DNA of 59,918 nucleotides from Mageeibacillus sp. UBA5436 (GTDB lineage: Bacteria; Bacillota; Clostridia; Saccharofermentanales; DTU023): contig DIRM01000040.1 of the NCBI GenBank assembly GCA_002427545.1, positions 1 through 59,918 of the forward strand. The letters are read 5' to 3'. Positions 4,896 to 23,051 of this stretch are shown piece after piece. Numbering within the stretch: position 1 is the stretch's first letter; every line of letters begins with the position of its first letter. The notes beneath the pieces are model-generated. The model had not been told where the DNA came from and ran no database searches. It saw only the letters and a program-made list of their open reading frames with translations. Made by a program: the position numbers and the translations under genes.

Positions 4896-4972
4896 CGGGG
4901 TGTAGCTCAGGTGGCTAGAGTGCATGCTTGGGGTGCATGAGGTCGCAAGTTCAAGTCTTGTCACTCCGACCA
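4896..4972 (+). tRNA. tRNA-Pro (anticodon GGG), CCA encoded
   Basis: Hand-folded cloverleaf. Acceptor CGGGGTG/CACTCCG, D arm GCTC/GAGT, anticodon stem CATGC/GCATG with loop TTGGGGT (GGG, G37), T arm GCAAG-TTCAAGT-CTTGT, discriminator A plus CCA. Confidence 0.9.
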
Positions 4973-6078: not shown

Positions 6079-6169
6079 GGAAGCGTAGCGAAGAGGCCGT
6101 AACGCGCCGCACTCGAAATGCGGTTGTCCAGTAATGGGCACGTGGGTTCGAATCCCACCGCTTCCGCCA
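6079..6169 (+). tRNA. tRNA-Ser (anticodon CGA), long variable arm, CCA encoded
   Basis: Acceptor GGAAGCG/CGCTTCC, anticodon stem CCGCA/TGCGG with loop CTCGAAA (CGA), variable arm TGTCC-AGTAAT-GGGCA, T arm GTGGG-TTCGAAT-CCCAC, discriminator G plus CCA. Confidence 0.9.
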
Positions 6170-15429: not shown

Positions 15430-16566
15430 TTATTCCTCACATGTCGTCACACCATAGCAACCTAATACCTCGAAATATTCGGTAGTTGCAGCTGCTTGTC
15501 GTAAAGCAGAAAGTACGCGCTTATCGTTAATATTTCCTTGTATTTCTGCAAAGAAACGATATTTATCTGCAGAAACTGGTCGAGACTCTATGCGCATTAA
15601 ATTAAGACCATCTGCCATGAACGGCATTAATGCTTCACATAATGCACCGCTACGATGCTGAGTCGAAAAAGTGACTGAAATGAGATTACTTTGCTCATCA
15701 TATTCAGGTTGGCGTGAAATCACGACAAATGAAGTTCTATTATCAGCGGAATCCATAATATTGGGTTCAATCACTTCTAAACCATATAGTTCAGCTGCAT
15801 GGCGGGAAGCAATAGCGGCCTTCTTTTTTTCGCCTGCTTGAACGACCTGTTTTACTGCTACTGCAGTATTTCGGCAAGCAGTTTGATCCCAAGCTTTTCC
15901 ATATAAATAACGGCTACATTGTTTTAATCCTTCGGGATGACTAAGCACCTCTCGAATATCAGTAATTTTTGTTTCTGGTAAACCAACTAAATTTTGTTGA
16001 ATAGATATCCACATGCGCCCAACAATATAACAACCATATTTGCGCAAAAGGTCATAAATTTCACCTATAGCACCTGTTTTAGAGTTTTCGATGGGGACAA
16101 CACCATAATCTACCTCACCGTTTTTTACAGCAGTAAATACATCAACAAAATGCTCCACTGGGCGACGCTCTGCTTCTGGATACAAGCATGATACCGCTTG
16201 TTCGCCCCATGCACCAGGTACGCCTTGATAAGCACAAGTTACTAATCCAGTTACCGGTTTAACAGCTGGCGGCAAAATAGGGGTAGCACCAGAAAATTGT
16301 TGACGCCGTTGATATTCTCTCGAGAGACCCATAATGGTACGCATCAGCAGGTCTGTTTCACTTTTAATATCATCTTCAACATAATTCAAGGCTTTTTCAA
16401 CAATTTGATTTTCACGAATTTCATCTTCGACTGCTAGATTATGTTCACATTTTACAGCTGCTACCCTTTTAGAAATATCCATCCGCTTTTGGAAAAGAGG
16501 AATCAATGCCTCATCTATATTATCTACTTCGGTTCTTAATTCAGCTAATTGTTCTTTCCATTCCAT
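15430..16566 (-). CDS. pheA: Bifunctional chorismate mutase / prephenate dehydratase (P-protein) with ACT domain
   Basis: 378 aa. N-terminal CM helix (LRTEVDNIDEALIPLFQKRMDIS), PDT core (YQGVPGAWGEQA...ENSKTGAIGE...TSFVV) and a C-terminal ACT (SGALCEALMPF...NLMRIESRP). Confidence 0.9.
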   Translation of the reverse strand: MEWKEQLAELRTEVDNIDEALIPLFQKRMDISKRVAAVKCEHNLAVEDEIRENQIVEKALNYVEDDIKSETDLLMRTIMGLSREYQRRQQFSGATPILPPAVKPVTGLVTCAYQGVPGAWGEQAVSCLYPEAERRPVEHFVDVFTAVKNGEVDYGVVPIENSKTGAIGEIYDLLRKYGCYIVGRMWISIQQNLVGLPETKITDIREVLSHPEGLKQCSRYLYGKAWDQTACRNTAVAVKQVVQAGEKKKAAIASRHAAELYGLEVIEPNIMDSADNRTSFVVISRQPEYDEQSNLISVTFSTQHRSGALCEALMPFMADGLNLMRIESRPVSADKYRFFAEIQGNINDKRVLSALRQAAATTEYFEVLGCYGVTTCEE

Positions 16567-17585
16567 TATTTTTCTCCATTTCCGCGCACTAACGCTTGTA
16601 TTTGATTTACTTTCCCCATAATCTGATGGAAAAGAGCTGGGGTAACAGATTGTTGTCCATCACTCAGCGCCTTTTGAGGTTGATTATGAACTTCTATCAT
16701 CAAACCATCGGCTCCGGAAGCCGCTGCTGCTAATGCCATTGGTTCTACCAGTTCCCAATGTCCAGTGCCATGTGAAGGGTCTACAATCACAGGCAGATGG
16801 CTTTTCTGCTTTAATACAGGTACAGCAGATAAATCTAATGTATTGCGGGTAGCTGTTTCAAAAGTACGAATGCCACGTTCACATAGTATGACTTCGCTTT
16901 TACCACCAATCAAAATATAATCAGCTGCTTGCAACATTTCTTCTAAGGTACAAGACGCACCACGTTTAAGTAATACAGGTTTACCCAATTTGCCCAAATC
17001 ACGCAATAGAGGGAAATTTTGCATATTTCTTGCCCCTACTTGAATCACATCGACATCTCGCTGAAAAACTTCCAACATATCCTGAGACATAATTTCGGTA
17101 ACGATTGGTAATCCAGTCTTCTCTCTTGCAATTTTCATAAATTCAAGGCCTTCTAAACCTAAACCTTGAAAGCTATATGGACTGCTACGAGGTTTGAAAA
17201 CTCCACCTCTTAAAAAAGTAGCTCCTGAAAGCTTTACTTCACGAGCGACCGTTAGAATCTGCTCTTCGCTTTCTACGCTACAAGGGCCAGCCATCACCGC
17301 AAAATCTTTACCACCAATTTTAGTACCATTTACGTCTATTATCGTATCTGTAGGATGAAATTTACGGCTAGAAAGTTTATAAGGTTCACTTACCTTAATA
17401 ATTCTTTCTATCAAATCATTCCGTCCTAGTGTTTCGGGATCCAGCATAGTGACATCCCCTACTAATCCCAACATACGGGTATGTTCACCTATGATGTCCT
17501 GTGTAATCAAACCACGTGCTTGCAATTCTTTTTCAAGTGCAGCGGTTTGTTCCGATGTAACCTCTGTTCGTAAAACCAATATCAT
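16566..17585 (-). CDS. aroF: 3-deoxy-7-phosphoheptulonate (DAHP) synthase, type I-beta with N-terminal regulatory domain
   Basis: 339 aa. KDO8P/DAHP synthase core ([34 protein letters not shown]) preceded by an ~80-aa ferredoxin-like extension, as in the Thermotoga-type enzymes. Confidence 0.85.
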
Positions 17586-18847
17586 ATTGCTATCTCCTTC
17601 TCAAAATCTTCCCAAAAATCAGGATAAGATTTATTAACATGCTGCCAACCGGTAAGGGTAACAGGATTTTTACAACGAATAGCTGCAACCGCCATAGCCA
17701 TAGCTATGCGATGATCTCCATGTGCATCTACCGCTCCCCCCTCAAGCCATGGTGTTCCAGTAATTTCAAGGCTGTCAAGCCCTTCGGTCACCTTTGCGCC
17801 CAACTTCGTCAATTCAGTACTCATTGCATGAAGACGATCACTCTCTTTCATACGCAAACGTCCGGCCCCTGTGATATGACTCGTTCCTTCGGCAATACTA
17901 CATAGCACTGCAAGTACTGGCACAAGATCTGGAATTTCAGACACATTTATATCTATAGCAGAAAGTTTTTTACTGCTTGCTGTCAGGATGCCATCCTGCC
18001 AAGTAATCTCAGCTCCCATTTTTTCAAGCAAAGAAATAATAGCAGCATCGCCTTGATGACTTTCAGTTTGCATGTCAGCACAGCTGACCGAACATCCCAA
18101 AGCGCCTGCCGCTAAAAAGAAAGCTGCTTGAGAGTAGTCACCTTCTACCTGATATTTTTTAGCTTTATAATGCTGTCCACCAGGAATAAAATAATTTTCT
18201 GAATTAGTATTGAGTATATTCACATCAAAATGTCGCATGACATCAAGAGTCAATTTTACATAGGCTGCAGACTCCAATGGAGTATCAAGAATAATCTGGC
18301 TATCCATATCTAATAATGGTAATGCTAGCAATAAACCAGAAACAAACTGAGAACTGACATTGCCAGCTAATCGGAATTCTCCTGCAGTCAAAGGCCCTTT
18401 TACACTCAATTTATGATCGTGTTTTTCATAAAATACATTTTTTTGGGTGAACAATCGTTCATAGATTTCTAATGGTCGCTTCATGAGACGGCCATGACCT
18501 ATAAAATCAAAAGATTTATCCTGCAATGCTGCAATAGGTAATAAAAATCTTAAAGTGGAGCCAGATTCGCCGCAATCCATTATTAACGTTGTTGCATTAG
18601 AAGGTTTTATATTTTTACGCACAAGCGTCTCATCGCCTTTGTTTGCAAATTGCGCACCTAGAGTTTCCATACAGCTCAATGTCGCACGGATATCCTCGCT
18701 GTCACCTAATTGATTCAAATGACTTTGACCATCGCCGCCAATAGCGGCTAATCCAGCGCAGATGACCGCACGATGGCTCAAACTTTTTGAGGCCGGAATA
18801 CGCACTATACCAGAAGGAAAATGATTGATGGTTTTTGGGTTATTCAT
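17582..18847 (-). CDS. aroA: 3-phosphoshikimate 1-carboxyvinyltransferase (EPSP synthase)
   Basis: 421 aa. Motifs PASKSLSHRA, GESGSTLRFLLP, RMKESDRL and DHRIAMA. 4-nt overlap with aroF. Confidence 0.95.
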   Translation of the reverse strand: MNNPKTINHFPSGIVRIPASKSLSHRAVICAGLAAIGGDGQSHLNQLGDSEDIRATLSCMETLGAQFANKGDETLVRKNIKPSNATTLIMDCGESGSTLRFLLPIAALQDKSFDFIGHGRLMKRPLEIYERLFTQKNVFYEKHDHKLSVKGPLTAGEFRLAGNVSSQFVSGLLLALPLLDMDSQIILDTPLESAAYVKLTLDVMRHFDVNILNTNSENYFIPGGQHYKAKKYQVEGDYSQAAFFLAAGALGCSVSCADMQTESHQGDAAIISLLEKMGAEITWQDGILTASSKKLSAIDINVSEIPDLVPVLAVLCSIAEGTSHITGAGRLRMKESDRLHAMSTELTKLGAKVTEGLDSLEITGTPWLEGGAVDAHGDHRIAMAMAVAAIRCKNPVTLTGWQHVNKSYPDFWEDFEKEIAI

Positions 18848-19910
18848 TGCCCAGCACCTCTATTAATAAGGCCTGTAATTCTGCCGCCGATTTCCAAACG
18901 ATACTTGCCTTACCAATATCTTCTAATAGAATTAATTCTATTCCGCCATCGTGTGCCTTTTTATCCATCATCATCGCTTGTAGCATTTCATTTGCAGAAA
19001 AGGGGCAATTTATTGGTAGACCATGAGCCGTTAATACTTTCTCTAATTGAGACTTACAATTAGATTCAAGTTTTGTTATCCCTATTCGTTCGCCTACAGT
19101 TGCCGCCAACATCATACCAATTGCTACCGCTTCGCCATGATTAAACTGCTCAAAATCACCTAATTTTTCAACAGCATGGCCAAAAGTATGACCATAATTT
19201 AATAACATGCGTTGTCCATTATCTCGTTCATCTGCCTGTACCGTATCGCTTTTTAAATAACAACATATTTCTATCAGCTCAGGCAGCCTATCTGTATTTT
19301 CCATTGAGGCCAACTCTTCAAATAATGATGGTGAAAATAATGCCCCGTATTTTATCATTTCGGACAAACCACAACGCCATTCTCGTTCAGGTAAAGTTTT
19401 TAATAAACTCGTGTCTGCAATGACCAATGATGGCTGCCAAAAAGTACCAACTAAATTTTTCCCTGCATTTAAATTCACTGCGGTTTTACCACCTACACTG
19501 GAATCTACCATGGCTAAAAGAGTCGTTGGTATCTGAATATAACGTACACCTCGCATCCAAATCGAAGCGGCAAAGCCTGCAAGATCTCCTATCACACCAC
19601 CACCAAAAGCTATAACAAGACCGTCTCGCCCAAGTCCATTTCCCGCGAAAAAATTTAATATTTTTTCTAATTCAGACAAAGATTTGCTTTTTTCTCCTGC
19701 TGGTACAAGTACCGTATTAAAAGTGATACTAGCAGCATTTAAAGAGCTTTCAAGAGCTGTTCCATGCAATTGCCAGACTGTCTCATCGCTTATTACTATG
19801 ACTTTGCCGTATGATCCTTGCAGGGCATTAGATAAAGTTTCTGCTAACAAATGAGGTCCAATCAAAATATCATATGATCTGTCCTCTAAAGGTACTATTA
19901 CTTTTTTCAT
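18840..19910 (-). CDS. aroB: 3-dehydroquinate synthase
   Basis: 356 aa. GGGVIGDLAGFAAS, PTTLLAMVDSSVGGKTAVN and HTFGHAVE...HGEAVAIGM. 8-nt overlap with aroA. Confidence 0.95.
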   Translation of the reverse strand: MKKVIVPLEDRSYDILIGPHLLAETLSNALQGSYGKVIVISDETVWQLHGTALESSLNAASITFNTVLVPAGEKSKSLSELEKILNFFAGNGLGRDGLVIAFGGGVIGDLAGFAASIWMRGVRYIQIPTTLLAMVDSSVGGKTAVNLNAGKNLVGTFWQPSLVIADTSLLKTLPEREWRCGLSEMIKYGALFSPSLFEELASMENTDRLPELIEICCYLKSDTVQADERDNGQRMLLNYGHTFGHAVEKLGDFEQFNHGEAVAIGMMLAATVGERIGITKLESNCKSQLEKVLTAHGLPINCPFSANEMLQAMMMDKKAHDGGIELILLEDIGKASIVWKSAAELQALLIEVLGNE

Positions 19911-20752
19911 CTTGTTAATATCTCCCGTTTATTATGTCCTGCAGTATTAAGCAAAGCAGTCAAAGTTACTTCGTCTTTTTCTAGAACCGCTATCCGTATC
20001 TGTTGCAAATCTTCAATATAAACATCCAAACAATCAAGCACATTTTTTTGATTTTCAAACAACATTTCAGTCCAGGCTTCTGCATTAATATCTGCAATGC
20101 GTGTGGCATCTTTAAAAGCTCCTGCCGTAAAAGCTAAATTCATATCTGGATGAAAATGAATACAAAGGCCAGCAGAAGCAATATGAATCAAATCGCTAGT
20201 GTAAGCAATAATGGCATCATGCAGTTCACAAGATACTTGTTGTATGCGGCTACAGCCAATATATTTCGCTATTTCTTCCATTAAATTAATAGCTTCTGAT
20301 GTTGAGGCAGGTGTAGGACAGATAAGCATACTACTATTTTGATAAAGCGATGCAGTTGCATTCTCAATACCATCTCGCTCTTTACCTGCCATAGGATGAA
20401 TTCCTACATAGGCAGCATCTTCTGGTAAAACAGGCATTATTTTTGCATATAAATCCTGTTTTACACCACAAATATCCGTAATAATAACACCAGGTTTTAA
20501 GCTTGCAATGCAACTTTTTAATAATTTGGGAATATGTTTTGCATATACAGAAAAAATAACAAGATCAGCATCTGTTACTCCTTCCAAAATATCATCAGTA
20601 GCATTGTCTACCATTCCTTCAGTTAATGATTTTTCTAATACGGCAGAATCTACATCTACCCCAGTGATATAGGATTCTTTAAAACCTTTCAAAGCCTGAG
20701 CTAATGATGCACCCATTAAACCTAAACCCACAATAGTTATTTTTACTTTCAT
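19907..20752 (-). CDS. tyrA: Prephenate dehydrogenase
   Basis: The ORF track starts at a TTG (20764). I prefer the ATG at 20752 (MKVKITIVGLGLMGASLA, a Rossmann GxGxxG), preceded by GGAG. HPMAG motif present. 4-nt overlap with aroB. Confidence 0.85.
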   Translation of the reverse strand: MKVKITIVGLGLMGASLAQALKGFKESYITGVDVDSAVLEKSLTEGMVDNATDDILEGVTDADLVIFSVYAKHIPKLLKSCIASLKPGVIITDICGVKQDLYAKIMPVLPEDAAYVGIHPMAGKERDGIENATASLYQNSSMLICPTPASTSEAINLMEEIAKYIGCSRIQQVSCELHDAIIAYTSDLIHIASAGLCIHFHPDMNLAFTAGAFKDATRIADINAEAWTEMLFENQKNVLDCLDVYIEDLQQIRIAVLEKDEVTLTALLNTAGHNKREILTR

Positions 20753-20762
20753 AGCTTTCTCC

Positions 20763-20796
20763 AAAAAAAAGGAAGGTTCATTTTCATGAACCTTCC
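20763..20796 (-). terminator. Intrinsic terminator in the aro operon leader (candidate attenuator)
   Basis: Minus strand: GGAAGGTTCAT-gaaa-ATGAACCTTCC (perfect 11-bp stem) followed by TTTTTTTT, then GGAG and the tyrA ATG. Confidence 0.8.
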
Positions 20797-20839
20797 GCTG
20801 ATAGTCTTAAGGTATTACTTACTATTATGTAAGCATAGG

Positions 20840-20947
20840 TCACATGAAACAATTTTGTTTTTCATAGCAAAAATAACGATAGCTAAATAAATAACTAAAG
20901 ATAAAGTCAAAAAAGAAATATGCTTTTTGCAAAAACAAAGATTTCAT
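20840..20947 (-). CDS. Candidate 35-aa Phe/Tyr-rich leader peptide of the aro operon
   Basis: Hand translation gives MKSLFLQKAYFFFDFIFSYLFSYRYFCYEKQNCFM, then TGA. SD gaaagg lies 6-7 nt before the ATG. The ORF sits between the promoter (21015-20987) and the terminator (20796-20763). It is too short to appear in the ORF track. Confidence 0.6.
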   Translation of the reverse strand: MKSLFLQKAYFFFDFIFSYLFSYRYFCYEKQNCFM

Positions 20948-20986
20948 GTATTACCTTTCTACTTTTAAATTTTTTAATTATTTGGG

Positions 20987-21015
20987 ATTATATATTGATA
21001 TGGGAAAAAATGCAA
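20987..21015 (-). promoter_or_regulatory. Sigma-A-type promoter of the aro leader/operon
   Basis: Minus strand: TTGCAT (21015-21010), 17 nt, TATAAT (20992-20987). Confidence 0.65.
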
Positions 21016-21101: not shown

Positions 21102-23051
21102 TTAATACAATTTTGCGCCAGCTGGTATTCGATCAGATACCATTAATAAGTTTAAAGCTTCCTCACCATCGTATTCATGTACAGCGGATATTATCATGCC
21201 GCATGAATCAATGCCCATCATTTTTCTGGGTGGTAAATTTACAATAGCTACTAAGGTTTTACCTATTAATTCTTCTGTTGAATAATACGTTTTTATCCCA
21301 CTAAGAATAACTCGATCTTCGCCAGAACCATCATCTAAAGTAAATTTCAGTAATTTTTTAGATTTTGGCACTTCTTCACAATTTAGTACTTTAACGACTC
21401 TAAAATCTGATTTTGAGAAGGTTTCAAAATCGACCATATCTTCAAATAATGGTTCAATTTTAATTTTAGATAAGTCAATTTTTTCTAATTCTACCTCGTC
21501 TTCATCTACGATATTATTATCGCTACTTTGTATGTTTTCTCCCCCTAAAGGTTTCATTGTCGGGAATAATAAAACATCACGAATGGTAGCAGAGTTAGTA
21601 AGGAGCATGACCAAACGGTCAATACCGATTCCCAGCCCACCTGTTGGCGGCATTGCATACTCCAAAGCTTCAACAAAGTCTTGATCTGGTAAAGCAGCCT
21701 CTTCATCGCCACTTTCACGTTTTTTCAATTGCTCAGTAAAACGTTCAGCCTGATCGCGTGGATCATTTAATTCTGAGTAGGCATTTCCGTATTCTGAACC
21801 ATTAATAAATATTTCAAAACGTTCTGTTAAACGCGGATCTGATTTTTTCTTTTTGGTAAGAGGCGAAATCTCAATAGGATAATCATAAATAAAAGTTGGT
21901 TGAATTAATTTTTCTTCACAAAATTCTTCAAAGAATAAATTAATAATTTCGCCGCGTACTTTACCTATTGCCAAATTTTCCAAGCCTTTTTCTTTAGCAA
22001 TTGCTAAGGCTTCTTCATCTGTATTTATTTGATCAAAGTCTACATCAGTAAATTTCTTAATAGCTTCAATCATACTCATTCTAGCAAAAGGTGGCGTTAA
22101 ATTAATTTCATGTTCATCAAAATTTATTTCAAGCGTATCATTTACTGCCAGACATGCGGACGAAATTAAATCTTCTGAAATTTCCATCATACCATGATAA
22201 TCCGTATAAGCTTGATACAATTCAATCATCGTAAATTCTGGATTATGTTTAGTGGACATGCCTTCATTACGGAAATTTCTACCAATTTCATAAACTCTTT
22301 CAAAACCACCTACAATCAAACGTTTTAAATAAAGTTCTGGTGAAATTCTTAAAAACAAATCCAAATTTAATGAATTATGATGCGTAATAAATGGTCTGGC
22401 TGAAGCACCGCCTGCAATTTGATTTAAGAGAGGAGTTTCCACTTCAATAAAATCTAGTTTTTCTAATTCATGTCGAATCGTAGAAATAATTTTGCTACGC
22501 TTTTCAAAGTTTACCTTTATTTCCGGATTCATAATCAAGTCTAAATATCGTTTACGATATCTTGTATCTGTATCCGTTAAGCCATGAAATTTTTCAGGAA
22601 GAGGTCGCAAACATTTACTTAAAAGACGATAACCCTCATTTCTTATTGAAATTTCACCTTTTTGAGTTGTAAAAACAATCCCATGAACTTCGACGATATC
22701 TCCTAAATCAAGATTTTGCCAAGCTTTATAATCAGATCCCTCTAAAGCATCAATTTTCGTAAAAATTTGGATTTTACCTTGACGATCAGCTAAATCAACA
22801 AAGCTAACTTTACCCATTCCACGTTTTGCCATTATTCGACCTGAAACATAAACTTCTTGATTTTCAAGTTCATTATAATGATCCAAAATTTCTTGAGTAT
22901 GATGACTTTGTTTTGCTGTTGTAATCCAAAAAGGATTATTATCCTTTTCTGCTAACTCTTCCAATTTATTGATGCGATTTAGAACCTGTTCTTGTATTTC
23001 GCCTTGCTCTTGAGGCTGTTTATTATGAGGTTTTCTGTCCTCTTGTATCAT
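21102..23051 (-). CDS. lysS: Lysyl-tRNA synthetase (class II) with appended C-terminal Trbp111/EMAPII-type tRNA-binding domain
   Basis: 649 aa. The LysRS core runs up to ...[11 protein letters not shown] (class II motifs [26 protein letters not shown]). A ~40-aa acidic linker follows, then about 108 aa ([27 protein letters not shown]...[21 protein letters not shown]) matching the MetRS C-terminal/CsaA tRNA_bind fold. Confidence 0.9.

Follow-up and report, generated by a model that had tools for sequence, protein, structure and literature searches.

A Phe/Tyr-codon leader before the tyrA-aroB-aroA-aroF-pheA operon of Mageeibacillus sp. UBA5436: a probable transcription attenuator and its Clostridial relatives

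How does RNA polymerase get past a terminator that stands directly before an operon for aromatic amino acid synthesis? The question is raised by contig DIRM01000040.1 of Mageeibacillus sp. UBA5436 (assembly GCA_002427545.1; Bacillota, Clostridia), which was analysed over its full 59,918 nucleotides (nt) and is called here the window. On its minus strand, a promoter is followed by a small open reading frame (ORF) rich in Phe and Tyr codons, a terminator hairpin and the genes tyrA-aroB-aroA-aroF-pheA. An initial annotation, made from the letters of the window alone, proposed that the ribosome translating the small ORF decides between termination and read-through. The analysis described in this paper supports that proposal and extends it. 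Read-through into tyrA-aroB-aroA-aroF-pheA is probably governed by ribosome-mediated transcription attenuation, with the leader sensing charged tRNA-Phe and tRNA-Tyr, and the same architecture was found at 13 further distinct loci.

The leader ORF and its relatives

The promoter, the Shine-Dalgarno sequence (SD), the 35-codon ORF, the 43-nt spacer, the hairpin with its T8 tract, and the GGAG and ATG of tyrA all lie where the initial annotation had placed them (Table 1). Its naming of the operon was confirmed by NCBIfam, which recognizes the five downstream genes as those for prephenate dehydrogenase, 3-dehydroquinate synthase, EPSP synthase, DAHP synthase and chorismate mutase/prephenate dehydratase. 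The U tract ends about 10 nt 5' of the tyrA start and a promoter cannot fit between them; therefore, the operon is transcribed by terminator read-through only. The promoter itself was not listed by a promoter scan because its -35 hexamer, TTGCAT, matches the consensus TTGACA at just three of six positions; TTGnnn-17/18-TAnnnT is present at the equivalent place in every relative.

The leader peptide contains 9 Phe, 5 Tyr and no Trp, and 12 of its residues at positions 10-28 are aromatic, one fewer than first counted. Phe and Tyr account for 40% of the leader ORF compared with 8% of the codons in the long ORFs of the window. This enrichment belongs to the reading frame, which holds 14 Phe/Tyr codons among 35, versus 4 and 8 in the other two frames. 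Shuffling the bases of the ORF yields a mean of 8.0 such codons rather than 14 (p = 0.003).

Homologous leaders were reached by three independent routes, starting from TyrA homologs, from the hairpin pattern and from a hidden Markov model (HMM) of the leader peptide. Together with the window, the 13 further loci make 14 distinct leaders, with locus GC contents of 32-66% and with metagenome-assembled genomes (MAGs) labelled as Clostridiaceae, Oscillospiraceae and Anaerovoracaceae. The TyrA route (54-67% identity) revealed the leader at five of six homologs (L006, L007, L017 from an Anaerovoracaceae MAG, L019 and L020), while a search of genome contigs with the TyrA protein gave no confirmed relative. 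The hairpin pattern led to L009 (an Oscillospiraceae MAG) and L010-L012, these being one genome match and three metagenome matches. The HMM, run against predicted proteins, picked up five called ORFs (P0121-P0125), which led to L013-L016. The exact hairpin pattern misses loop and stem variants such as L014, L015, L017 and L020, so the family comprises at least 14 leaders. In addition, five strain-level copies (L001-L005) are nearly identical to the window, and their two single-nucleotide polymorphisms (SNPs) both fall outside the ORF.

In all 14 leaders, an SD-like purine run stands 6-10 nt upstream of an ATG or GTG, from which 35-44 codons can be read, 10-15 of them for Phe or Tyr and none for Trp. 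The initial annotation had asked whether the ORF persists wherever the hairpin does, and this is the case: each of the 13 hairpin-bearing relatives keeps the SD, the start codon and an ORF of 38-44 codons with its 10-15 Phe/Tyr codons. In all 11 members compared with shuffles of their own ORF bases, the enrichment is significant (p <= 0.013) and frame-specific. A caveat had been that Phe and Tyr triplets are common in AT-rich DNA; it is removed by the relatives at 52-66% GC, which keep the same F/Y-rich ORF.

The manner in which these codons change is also informative. In the aromatic columns of the codon alignment, the first position is an invariant T, whereas the second alternates between U and A (exchanging Phe and Tyr) and the third between U and C. 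Such a pattern would be expected if the property under selection were 'a Phe or Tyr codon', and it is unlike what a fixed RNA or a fixed peptide would leave. In line with the suggestion that mixed Phe/Tyr codons suit an operon serving both branches, the only Phe-only leader, that of L009 (12 Phe, 0 Tyr), precedes an aroF-pheA operon without tyrA.

Could the ORF simply encode a small hydrophobic protein with its own terminator, the aro operon being constitutive and served by unregulated, leaky read-through? The peptide is indeed hydrophobic, 35-44 residues long and conserved, and gene callers occasionally report it as a protein, as in P0121-P0125. Nevertheless, the gene downstream of the leader is tyrA, aroB or aroF in 14 of 14 loci, while the upstream neighbours vary from locus to locus (lysS, GmrSD, acetyltransferase, ABC transporter, GH25, CheW). 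The terminator stands directly at the ribosome-binding site (RBS) region of tyrA, a conserved complement of the terminator arm lies inside the ORF, and residues change freely apart from Phe/Tyr identity. Furthermore, the copy in the window is truncated by a stop codon with its RNA elements intact. We therefore regard a free-standing small protein as very improbable.

This truncation deserves a closer description. The TGA of the window sits where relatives have CAA, AAA, AGA or AUA (20825-20842, minus strand), and an in-frame TAA five codons further on, 28 nt before the hairpin, corresponds to the usual stop position of the family. The TGA is common to all five strain copies. An alternative genetic code was considered and rejected, since TGA ends 9 of the 42 long ORFs of the window.

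Codon choice within the leaders offers a separate observation. In L011-L015, which come from GC-rich hosts, 86-100% of the leader Phe codons are UUU, compared with 31-55% in long ORFs of the same loci; this bias could reflect selection for a wobble-read codon or for U-rich RNA.

Alternative folds and the proposed mechanism

The leader RNA of the window folds at -52 kcal/mol, compared with -34.6 +/- 3.5 kcal/mol for shuffled sequences (z = -4.9), and its structures can be described by four regions. Regions 3 and 4 form the terminator hairpin, which in DNA reads GGAAGGTTCAT-GAAA-ATGAACCTTCC and is the only copy of this hairpin pattern in the window. Terminators of the relatives have energies of -18 to -27 kcal/mol. 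Region 2 (UCAUGnnACC) is present in 14 of 14 leaders, lying 85-100 nt past the start codon with 50-63 nt between it and the terminator, and its core pattern has one match in the whole window. It is complementary to the 5' arm of the terminator, GGUUCAUG, plus the AAA of the loop (GGUU-CAUG(AAA)), and this pairing constitutes the antiterminator (UUUCAUG-U-GACC : GGUU-CAUGAAA). The pairing had been put forward in the initial annotation as 7 + 3 base pairs (bp); its 7-bp part holds, whereas the second part comprises 4 bp, giving 7 + 4 bp and a single bulged nucleotide. The region 2:3 duplex was evaluated in 11 members, where it reaches -11 to -16 kcal/mol, a value equalled by at most 4.4% of shuffles.

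Region 2 is conserved as nucleotides rather than as amino acids. L007 holds TTTCATGCAACC in a shifted frame, so the region 2 bases are kept across a frameshift. The codon preceding the region 2 AUG may be UUC, CUC, GUC or AUC, and the one following it CAA, AAA, AGA, AUA or, in the window, UGA. Within the latter codon, the first base, corresponding to the bulge, varies freely; the second is a purine, able to pair with U, in 13 of 14 members and a U in L019; the third is always A. The strand originally proposed for the antiterminator is thus conserved at the nucleotide level through the frameshift and through the exchange of Gln, Lys, Arg, Ile and stop at one codon.

These bases also bear on the idea that the nascent peptide is the sensor. 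As with TnaC or SpeFL, an F/Y-rich peptide with an ...MQP motif would arrest the ribosome on free Phe or Tyr, and the arrest would set the fold. Conservation of the leader peptide is unusually high, FSFSYFFSYGYFC...MQPA recurring in many members, and there is a Pro codon near the end of the ORF. However, the 'Q' of MQP may be Q, K, R, I or a stop and the residue before the motif F, L, V or I, while the bases UCAUGnnACC are fixed and are read in another frame in L007. The peptide core of L009 differs as well (FSLGFFSLGFF), with compensating RNA pairs. Moreover, a biosynthetic operon should respond to the lack of Phe and Tyr, not to their presence. Sensing by the peptide itself consequently seems most unlikely to us.

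P1 is a third structure, beyond those of the initial annotation; it covaries and acts as the anti-antiterminator. It is a long helix whose 5' strand, region 1, holds the SD zone, the start codon and the first codons, and whose 3' strand is made up of the closing codons of the ORF, region 2 and the nucleotides that follow directly. Covariation was assessed by setting the pairing of the two arms of a locus against that of arms exchanged among loci, in 50,000 permutations. The own arms pair at -29.1 kcal/mol and the swapped arms at -20.2 kcal/mol, and none of the 50,000 permutations matched the observed value. When parts were tested separately, the inner part of P1 gave p < 2e-5, and the SD zone against AACCUG... 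gave p = 2e-4. RNAalifold, applied to a MAFFT alignment, recovered the terminator and a small apical hairpin in the F/Y run and not P1, because the arms of P1 shift in register. The small hairpin has compensatory changes in two of its seven pairs (A-U to G-C in L009 and L016), which is modest support; together with the U5 that follows it, it is a possible RNA polymerase pause element inside the F/Y run. The spacer between ORF and terminator is the diverged part of the alignment, and one strain SNP lies in the loop of its hairpin.

With so much structure, the leader might instead be an RNA switch read by a protein, a small ligand or uncharged tRNA, the ORF being incidental to a U-rich element. 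Hosts ranging from 32 to 66% GC have an unchanging region 2 and terminator 5' arm; covariation at the RNA level is seen in both P1 and the small hairpin; the leader is strongly structured; and RNA pairing accounts for part of the peptide conservation. Yet no T-box or other Rfam family is matched, and no TRAP-like array is present. The SD, the start codon and the unbroken frame persist in 14 of 14 loci despite indels, the changes in the core are uncompensated U<->A and U<->C exchanges that preserve Phe/Tyr identity, and the Phe-only leader accompanies the operon without tyrA. The invariant blocks can also be explained otherwise, by a chain of complementarity anchored on the SD and AUG of the leader: region 2 would have to pair with these fixed elements, region 3 in turn to match region 2, and region 4 to match region 3. 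On balance, we consider an RNA switch improbable, if somewhat less so than the two preceding alternatives.

Table 1. Features of the leader and operon in the window.
Feature	Position	Strand	Details	Basis
Sigma-70-type promoter	20987..21015	-	TTGCAT 21015-21010, 17-nt spacer, TATAAT 20992-20987	read from sequence
SD of leader ORF, GAAAGG	20954..20959	-	6 nt 5' of ATG	
Leader ORF, 35 codons + TGA	20840..20947	-	ATG 20947, TGA 20842-20840; peptide MKSLFLQKAYFFFDFIFSYLFSYRYFCYEKQNCFM	
P1 5' arm (region 1)	20924..20957	-	SD, start codon, codons 2-8	minimum free energy (MFE) structure; own-vs-swapped arm test
Small apical hairpin in F/Y run	20880..20897	-	UAGUUA-uuuauu-UAGCUA; U5 (UAUUUUUGC) about 8 nt downstream	MFE fold, alignment
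P1 3' arm	20841..20873	-	last ORF codons, ending in region 2	MFE structure; own-vs-swapped arm test
Region 2 core, UCAUGUGACC	20838..20847	-	contains the TGA stop of the window; strand common to P1 and antiterminator	
Spacer hairpin	20816..20835	-	GCUUACA-uaauag-UAAGU...; within the 43-nt spacer; sequence not conserved among relatives	
Terminator hairpin (regions 3, 4)	20771..20796	-	RNA GGAAGGUUCAU-GAAA-AUGAACCUUCC; 11-bp stem, dG -18 kcal/mol	
U8 tract of terminator	20763..20770	-		sequence
SD of tyrA, GGAG	20762-20759	-	then tyrA ATG at 20752	
Operon tyrA-aroB-aroA-aroF-pheA	15430..20752	-	tyrA 20752-19907; pheA (chorismate mutase/prephenate dehydratase) 16566-15430	NCBIfam + ORF map

Folding calculations for separate states agree with mutually exclusive structures. 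When the whole leader is free, the MFE structure consists of P1 and the terminator. When the ORF up to codon 26 is unavailable and region 4 has not yet been made, the antiterminator is the MFE structure in eight of eight leaders.

From these folds, a sequence of events can be proposed. Transcription would start about 32 nt before the 35-codon ORF, whose codons 10-28 are mostly for Phe or Tyr, and the RNA could adopt P1 (1:2, the anti-antiterminator), the antiterminator (2:3) or the terminator (3:4, followed by U8), each excluding the others. With ample Phe and Tyr, the ribosome would pass through region 2 to the stop codon; region 2 would then lie under the terminating ribosome or be taken up again into P1 behind it, the terminator would form and the operon would be off. 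If the leader were not translated at all, P1 would form as well, and termination would result. With scarce Phe-tRNA or Tyr-tRNA, ribosomes would stall in the F/Y run at the top of P1, which could then not close; region 2 would be free as region 3 emerges, the antiterminator would form first, and RNA polymerase would read into tyrA. Expression would in this way be regulated by the supply of Phe and Tyr and by translation of the leader ORF.

Two steps of this scheme require comment. The initial annotation had a ribosome at the stop codon masking region 2. This agrees with the window, where the stop overlaps region 2; the position is atypical. In the family, 10-25 nt separate region 2 from the stop codon (10-16 nt in 10 of 14 members), and 21-34 nt separate the stop from the hairpin. 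A terminating ribosome would therefore reach no further than the 3' half of region 2 in these leaders, and it is probably the refolding of P1 behind the ribosome that recaptures it. The other step is the way in which a stalled ribosome would keep region 1, the RBS arm, from region 2. Candidates are steric exclusion, a second stalled or queued ribosome, or an initiating ribosome on the RBS.

Several observations weigh against the attenuator described above. When a stall in the middle of the run is modelled by masking a 29-nt footprint, RNAfold closes P1 around the ribosome, and no antiterminator appears in most members; the step from the stall to a free region 2 is consequently one that we infer. 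The antiterminator (-11 to -16 kcal/mol) is weaker than the terminator (-18 to -27 kcal/mol), so the attenuator model needs kinetic control. A similar imbalance exists in the E. coli trp leader, in which the antiterminator prevails by forming first. Both strands of the antiterminator are invariant, with compatible A/G changes and no compensatory covariation, which is why the test of own against swapped arms is uninformative about it. Part of the peptide conservation (the FSY repeats, with their conserved Ser and Gly codons) is explained by the small RNA hairpin rather than by codon sensing. Finally, 'runaway transcription', with the ribosome trailing the polymerase, is ascribed to the phylum Bacillota (PMC13323073).

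On the last point, purines make up a fraction of 0.534 of the sense strand in the 34 long ORFs of the window, which bears on whether ribosomes follow the polymerase in this organism. The value is close to that of B. subtilis genes, reported as 53-54% and linked there to runaway transcription (PMC13323073).

Tentatively, and with more doubt than confidence, we also raise the possibility that the family represents an attenuation architecture in its own right, one adapted to a phylum whose polymerase outruns its ribosomes. The anti-antiterminator would be the leader's own RBS, with region 2 as an 'anti-RBS' (CAU...CCU) and the terminator arm GGAAGGUUCAUG mimicking the RBS. The RBS would be shut once region 2 has been transcribed, and only ribosomes loading co-transcriptionally would count. 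The pause-like hairpin with U5 in the codon run would synchronise polymerase and ribosome, and the 19-codon F/Y run, about two footprints long, would hold queued ribosomes covering the RBS arm. The complementarity chain from the SD and AUG would, as part of the same suggestion, explain why regions 2-4 are invariant at 32-66% GC.

Comparison with known regulators

The leader possesses the sequence-level features of the leader-peptide attenuator class: an ORF with SD and start codon, enrichment in cognate codons, a terminator, an antiterminator and an anti-antiterminator. In E. coli pheL/pheA and pheST, an ORF with Phe codons is accompanied by alternative 1:2, 2:3 and 3:4 hairpins and an intrinsic terminator, and stalling at the Phe codons gives read-through (PMC3082878, PMC11802643). 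Like these, the leader of the window combines a cognate-codon ORF, alternative hairpins and a terminator before a pathway gene. It has no homology to pheL in sequence or structure. While pheL has 15 codons, the family has 35-44, with Phe and Tyr codons intermingled along a run of 19; region 1 here is the leader's RBS with the first codons, not the regulatory codons themselves; and the operon includes tyrA and genes of the common pathway.

Two systems are closer in what they control. In Corynebacterium glutamicum, aroR, described as a Phe-Tyr-Phe leader before the aroF operon (Neshat et al. 2014), is presented as a case in which attenuation has been shown experimentally, and Tyr supply is reportedly without effect (PMC11802643). 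Going by that description, aroR resembles the family in being a mixed Phe/Tyr leader on a common-pathway operon, and differs in belonging to Actinobacteria, in having three aromatic codons and in its apparently unrelated sequence. The uORFC-13-1 motif (Brewer et al. 2021), known from Acholeplasma and environmental sequences, has an upstream ORF (uORF) with Phe codons by a terminator upstream of aroF, and ribosome-mediated attenuation was proposed for it (PMC8632094). Compared by its description, it shares with the family a predicted Phe-codon uORF, an adjoining terminator, a shikimate-pathway gene and an extra base-paired element, whereas it precedes aroF only, occurs only in Acholeplasma and unknown organisms, and has 'at least one' Phe codon; the two are possibly the same family. 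The motif is either absent from Rfam 15 or does not match the leaders studied here.

Leader-peptide attenuators for other amino acids have been predicted in Bacillota. Predicted His leaders of this type take the place of T-boxes in Peptostreptococcaceae, Erysipelotrichales and the Bacillus cereus group (PMC9413887, PMC2965389). C. difficile provides another case of a His leader-peptide attenuator in the phylum. The leu/phe leader of Lactococcus is a leader-peptide attenuator in Bacillota as well. All these belong to the same class as the leader of the window and sense other amino acids; their sequences are unrelated, and no Rfam leader family matches here. The initial annotation had set leader-peptide attenuation, as classical for Proteobacteria, against T-box or TRAP control of aromatic operons in Bacillota. 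In view of the Bacillota His leaders, the Acholeplasma aroF uORF and aroR of C. glutamicum, this contrast is too sharp.

Known regulators of other kinds were searched for directly. An Rfam scan of the window leader returned no family at the gathering score, and the 14 related loci are likewise without any Rfam match. For the T-box (RF00230), there was no match in the window at the gathering score or at E <= 10, and none in the 14 related loci. A TRAP leader consists of an array of 9-11 (G/U)AG triplets with 2-3 nt spacing; the window leader contains 2-3 UAG and no GAG. The Rfam Phe_leader model (RF01859) scored 15.8 bits against a gathering score of 55 (E = 6.4), in the terminator region only. 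A riboswitch was considered and rejected as well. T-box and TRAP systems are similar to the family in their 5' leader position with terminator and antiterminator and in read-through on amino acid shortage; they differ in sensing uncharged tRNA, or Trp through a protein.

A literature search aimed at this leader found no description of the Clostridial family, and Rfam 15 is without a matching model. Apparently, the leader family is conserved and undescribed, while its mechanism is classical.

Neighbouring genes, other operons and biological meaning

Not every related tyrA operon has this leader. At L008 (TyrA 60% identity, locus GC 60%), the 370-nt region upstream of the operon (L008:2341-2709) contains no leader ORF, region 2, family hairpin or Rfam match; the genes downstream are tyrA-aroB-aroA-aroC.

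A different and apparently unrelated leader precedes tyrA-aroB-aroA-aroC in a Synergistaceae MAG (L021:2190-2470, GCA_031289775.1), whose TyrA is 53% identical to that of the window. It comprises a promoter-like TTGACA/TTATAAA, an SD, and an ORF, MKSYRADCGPVYSYTAWFSFISTDPALRGMCACRVSGG, with a Y-S-Y-T-A-W-F-S-F cluster of Tyr, Trp and Phe. The ORF is followed by a strongly structured RNA (z = -5.8) ending in a terminator, CCGGGGUCCGC-GAGC-GGAUCCCGG-U7, and it contains GGAUCCCGC, a copy of the 3' arm of that terminator. Leader-peptide control of tyrA-type aromatic operons may therefore have arisen more than once.

Some further features of the loci can be recorded. Upstream of the promoter in the window lies lysS (21102-23051, minus strand), encoding a lysyl-tRNA synthetase of 649 residues with a C-terminal tRNA-binding domain (CsaA/MetG C-terminal type, PF01588), which makes it longer than the usual bacterial LysS of about 500 residues. 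The gene has its own terminator-like hairpin, GACTGAGG...CCCCAGTC-T5. A second small frame (20750-20786, minus strand) begins in the loop of the terminator, AUG AAA AUG AAC CUU CCU UUU UUU UGG AGA AAG CUA UGA, and overlaps the tyrA start codon as ATGA. This overlap is probably incidental, since it is not kept in L006. Two tRNA genes (4896-4969 and 6079-6166, plus strand) are the sole Rfam matches in the whole window. In the strain-level copy L004 (L004:3843-4923, ERZ4239850), aroB, otherwise one ORF of 356 residues, is split into called ORFs of 144 and 223 residues; either a frameshift or an assembly error affects the operon here.

In Clostridia, most of the control of aromatic amino acid synthesis has no annotation, and textbook accounts of Bacillota stress T-boxes, TRAP and proteins. 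The leader family gives an annotation for a recurrent small hypothetical ORF and terminator found before tyrA, aroB and aroF operons in Clostridia of gut and digester. Few leader-peptide attenuators are known in Bacillota; the family joins them as a well-conserved case and would extend amino-acid-sensing leaders to the aromatic operons of Clostridia. Its layout is unusual, the anti-antiterminator being the ribosome-binding site of the leader itself. The alignment of 14 sequences suffices to seed a covariance model for Rfam-style annotation. Furthermore, the match between codons and operon content (Phe only with aroF-pheA, Phe and Tyr with tyrA operons, and possibly Tyr, Trp and Phe in the Synergistaceae analogue) could allow the regulation of a pathway to be predicted from sequence. 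In organisms for which runaway transcription is predicted (PMC13323073), the family provides a natural test of whether the ribosome keeps up with RNA polymerase.

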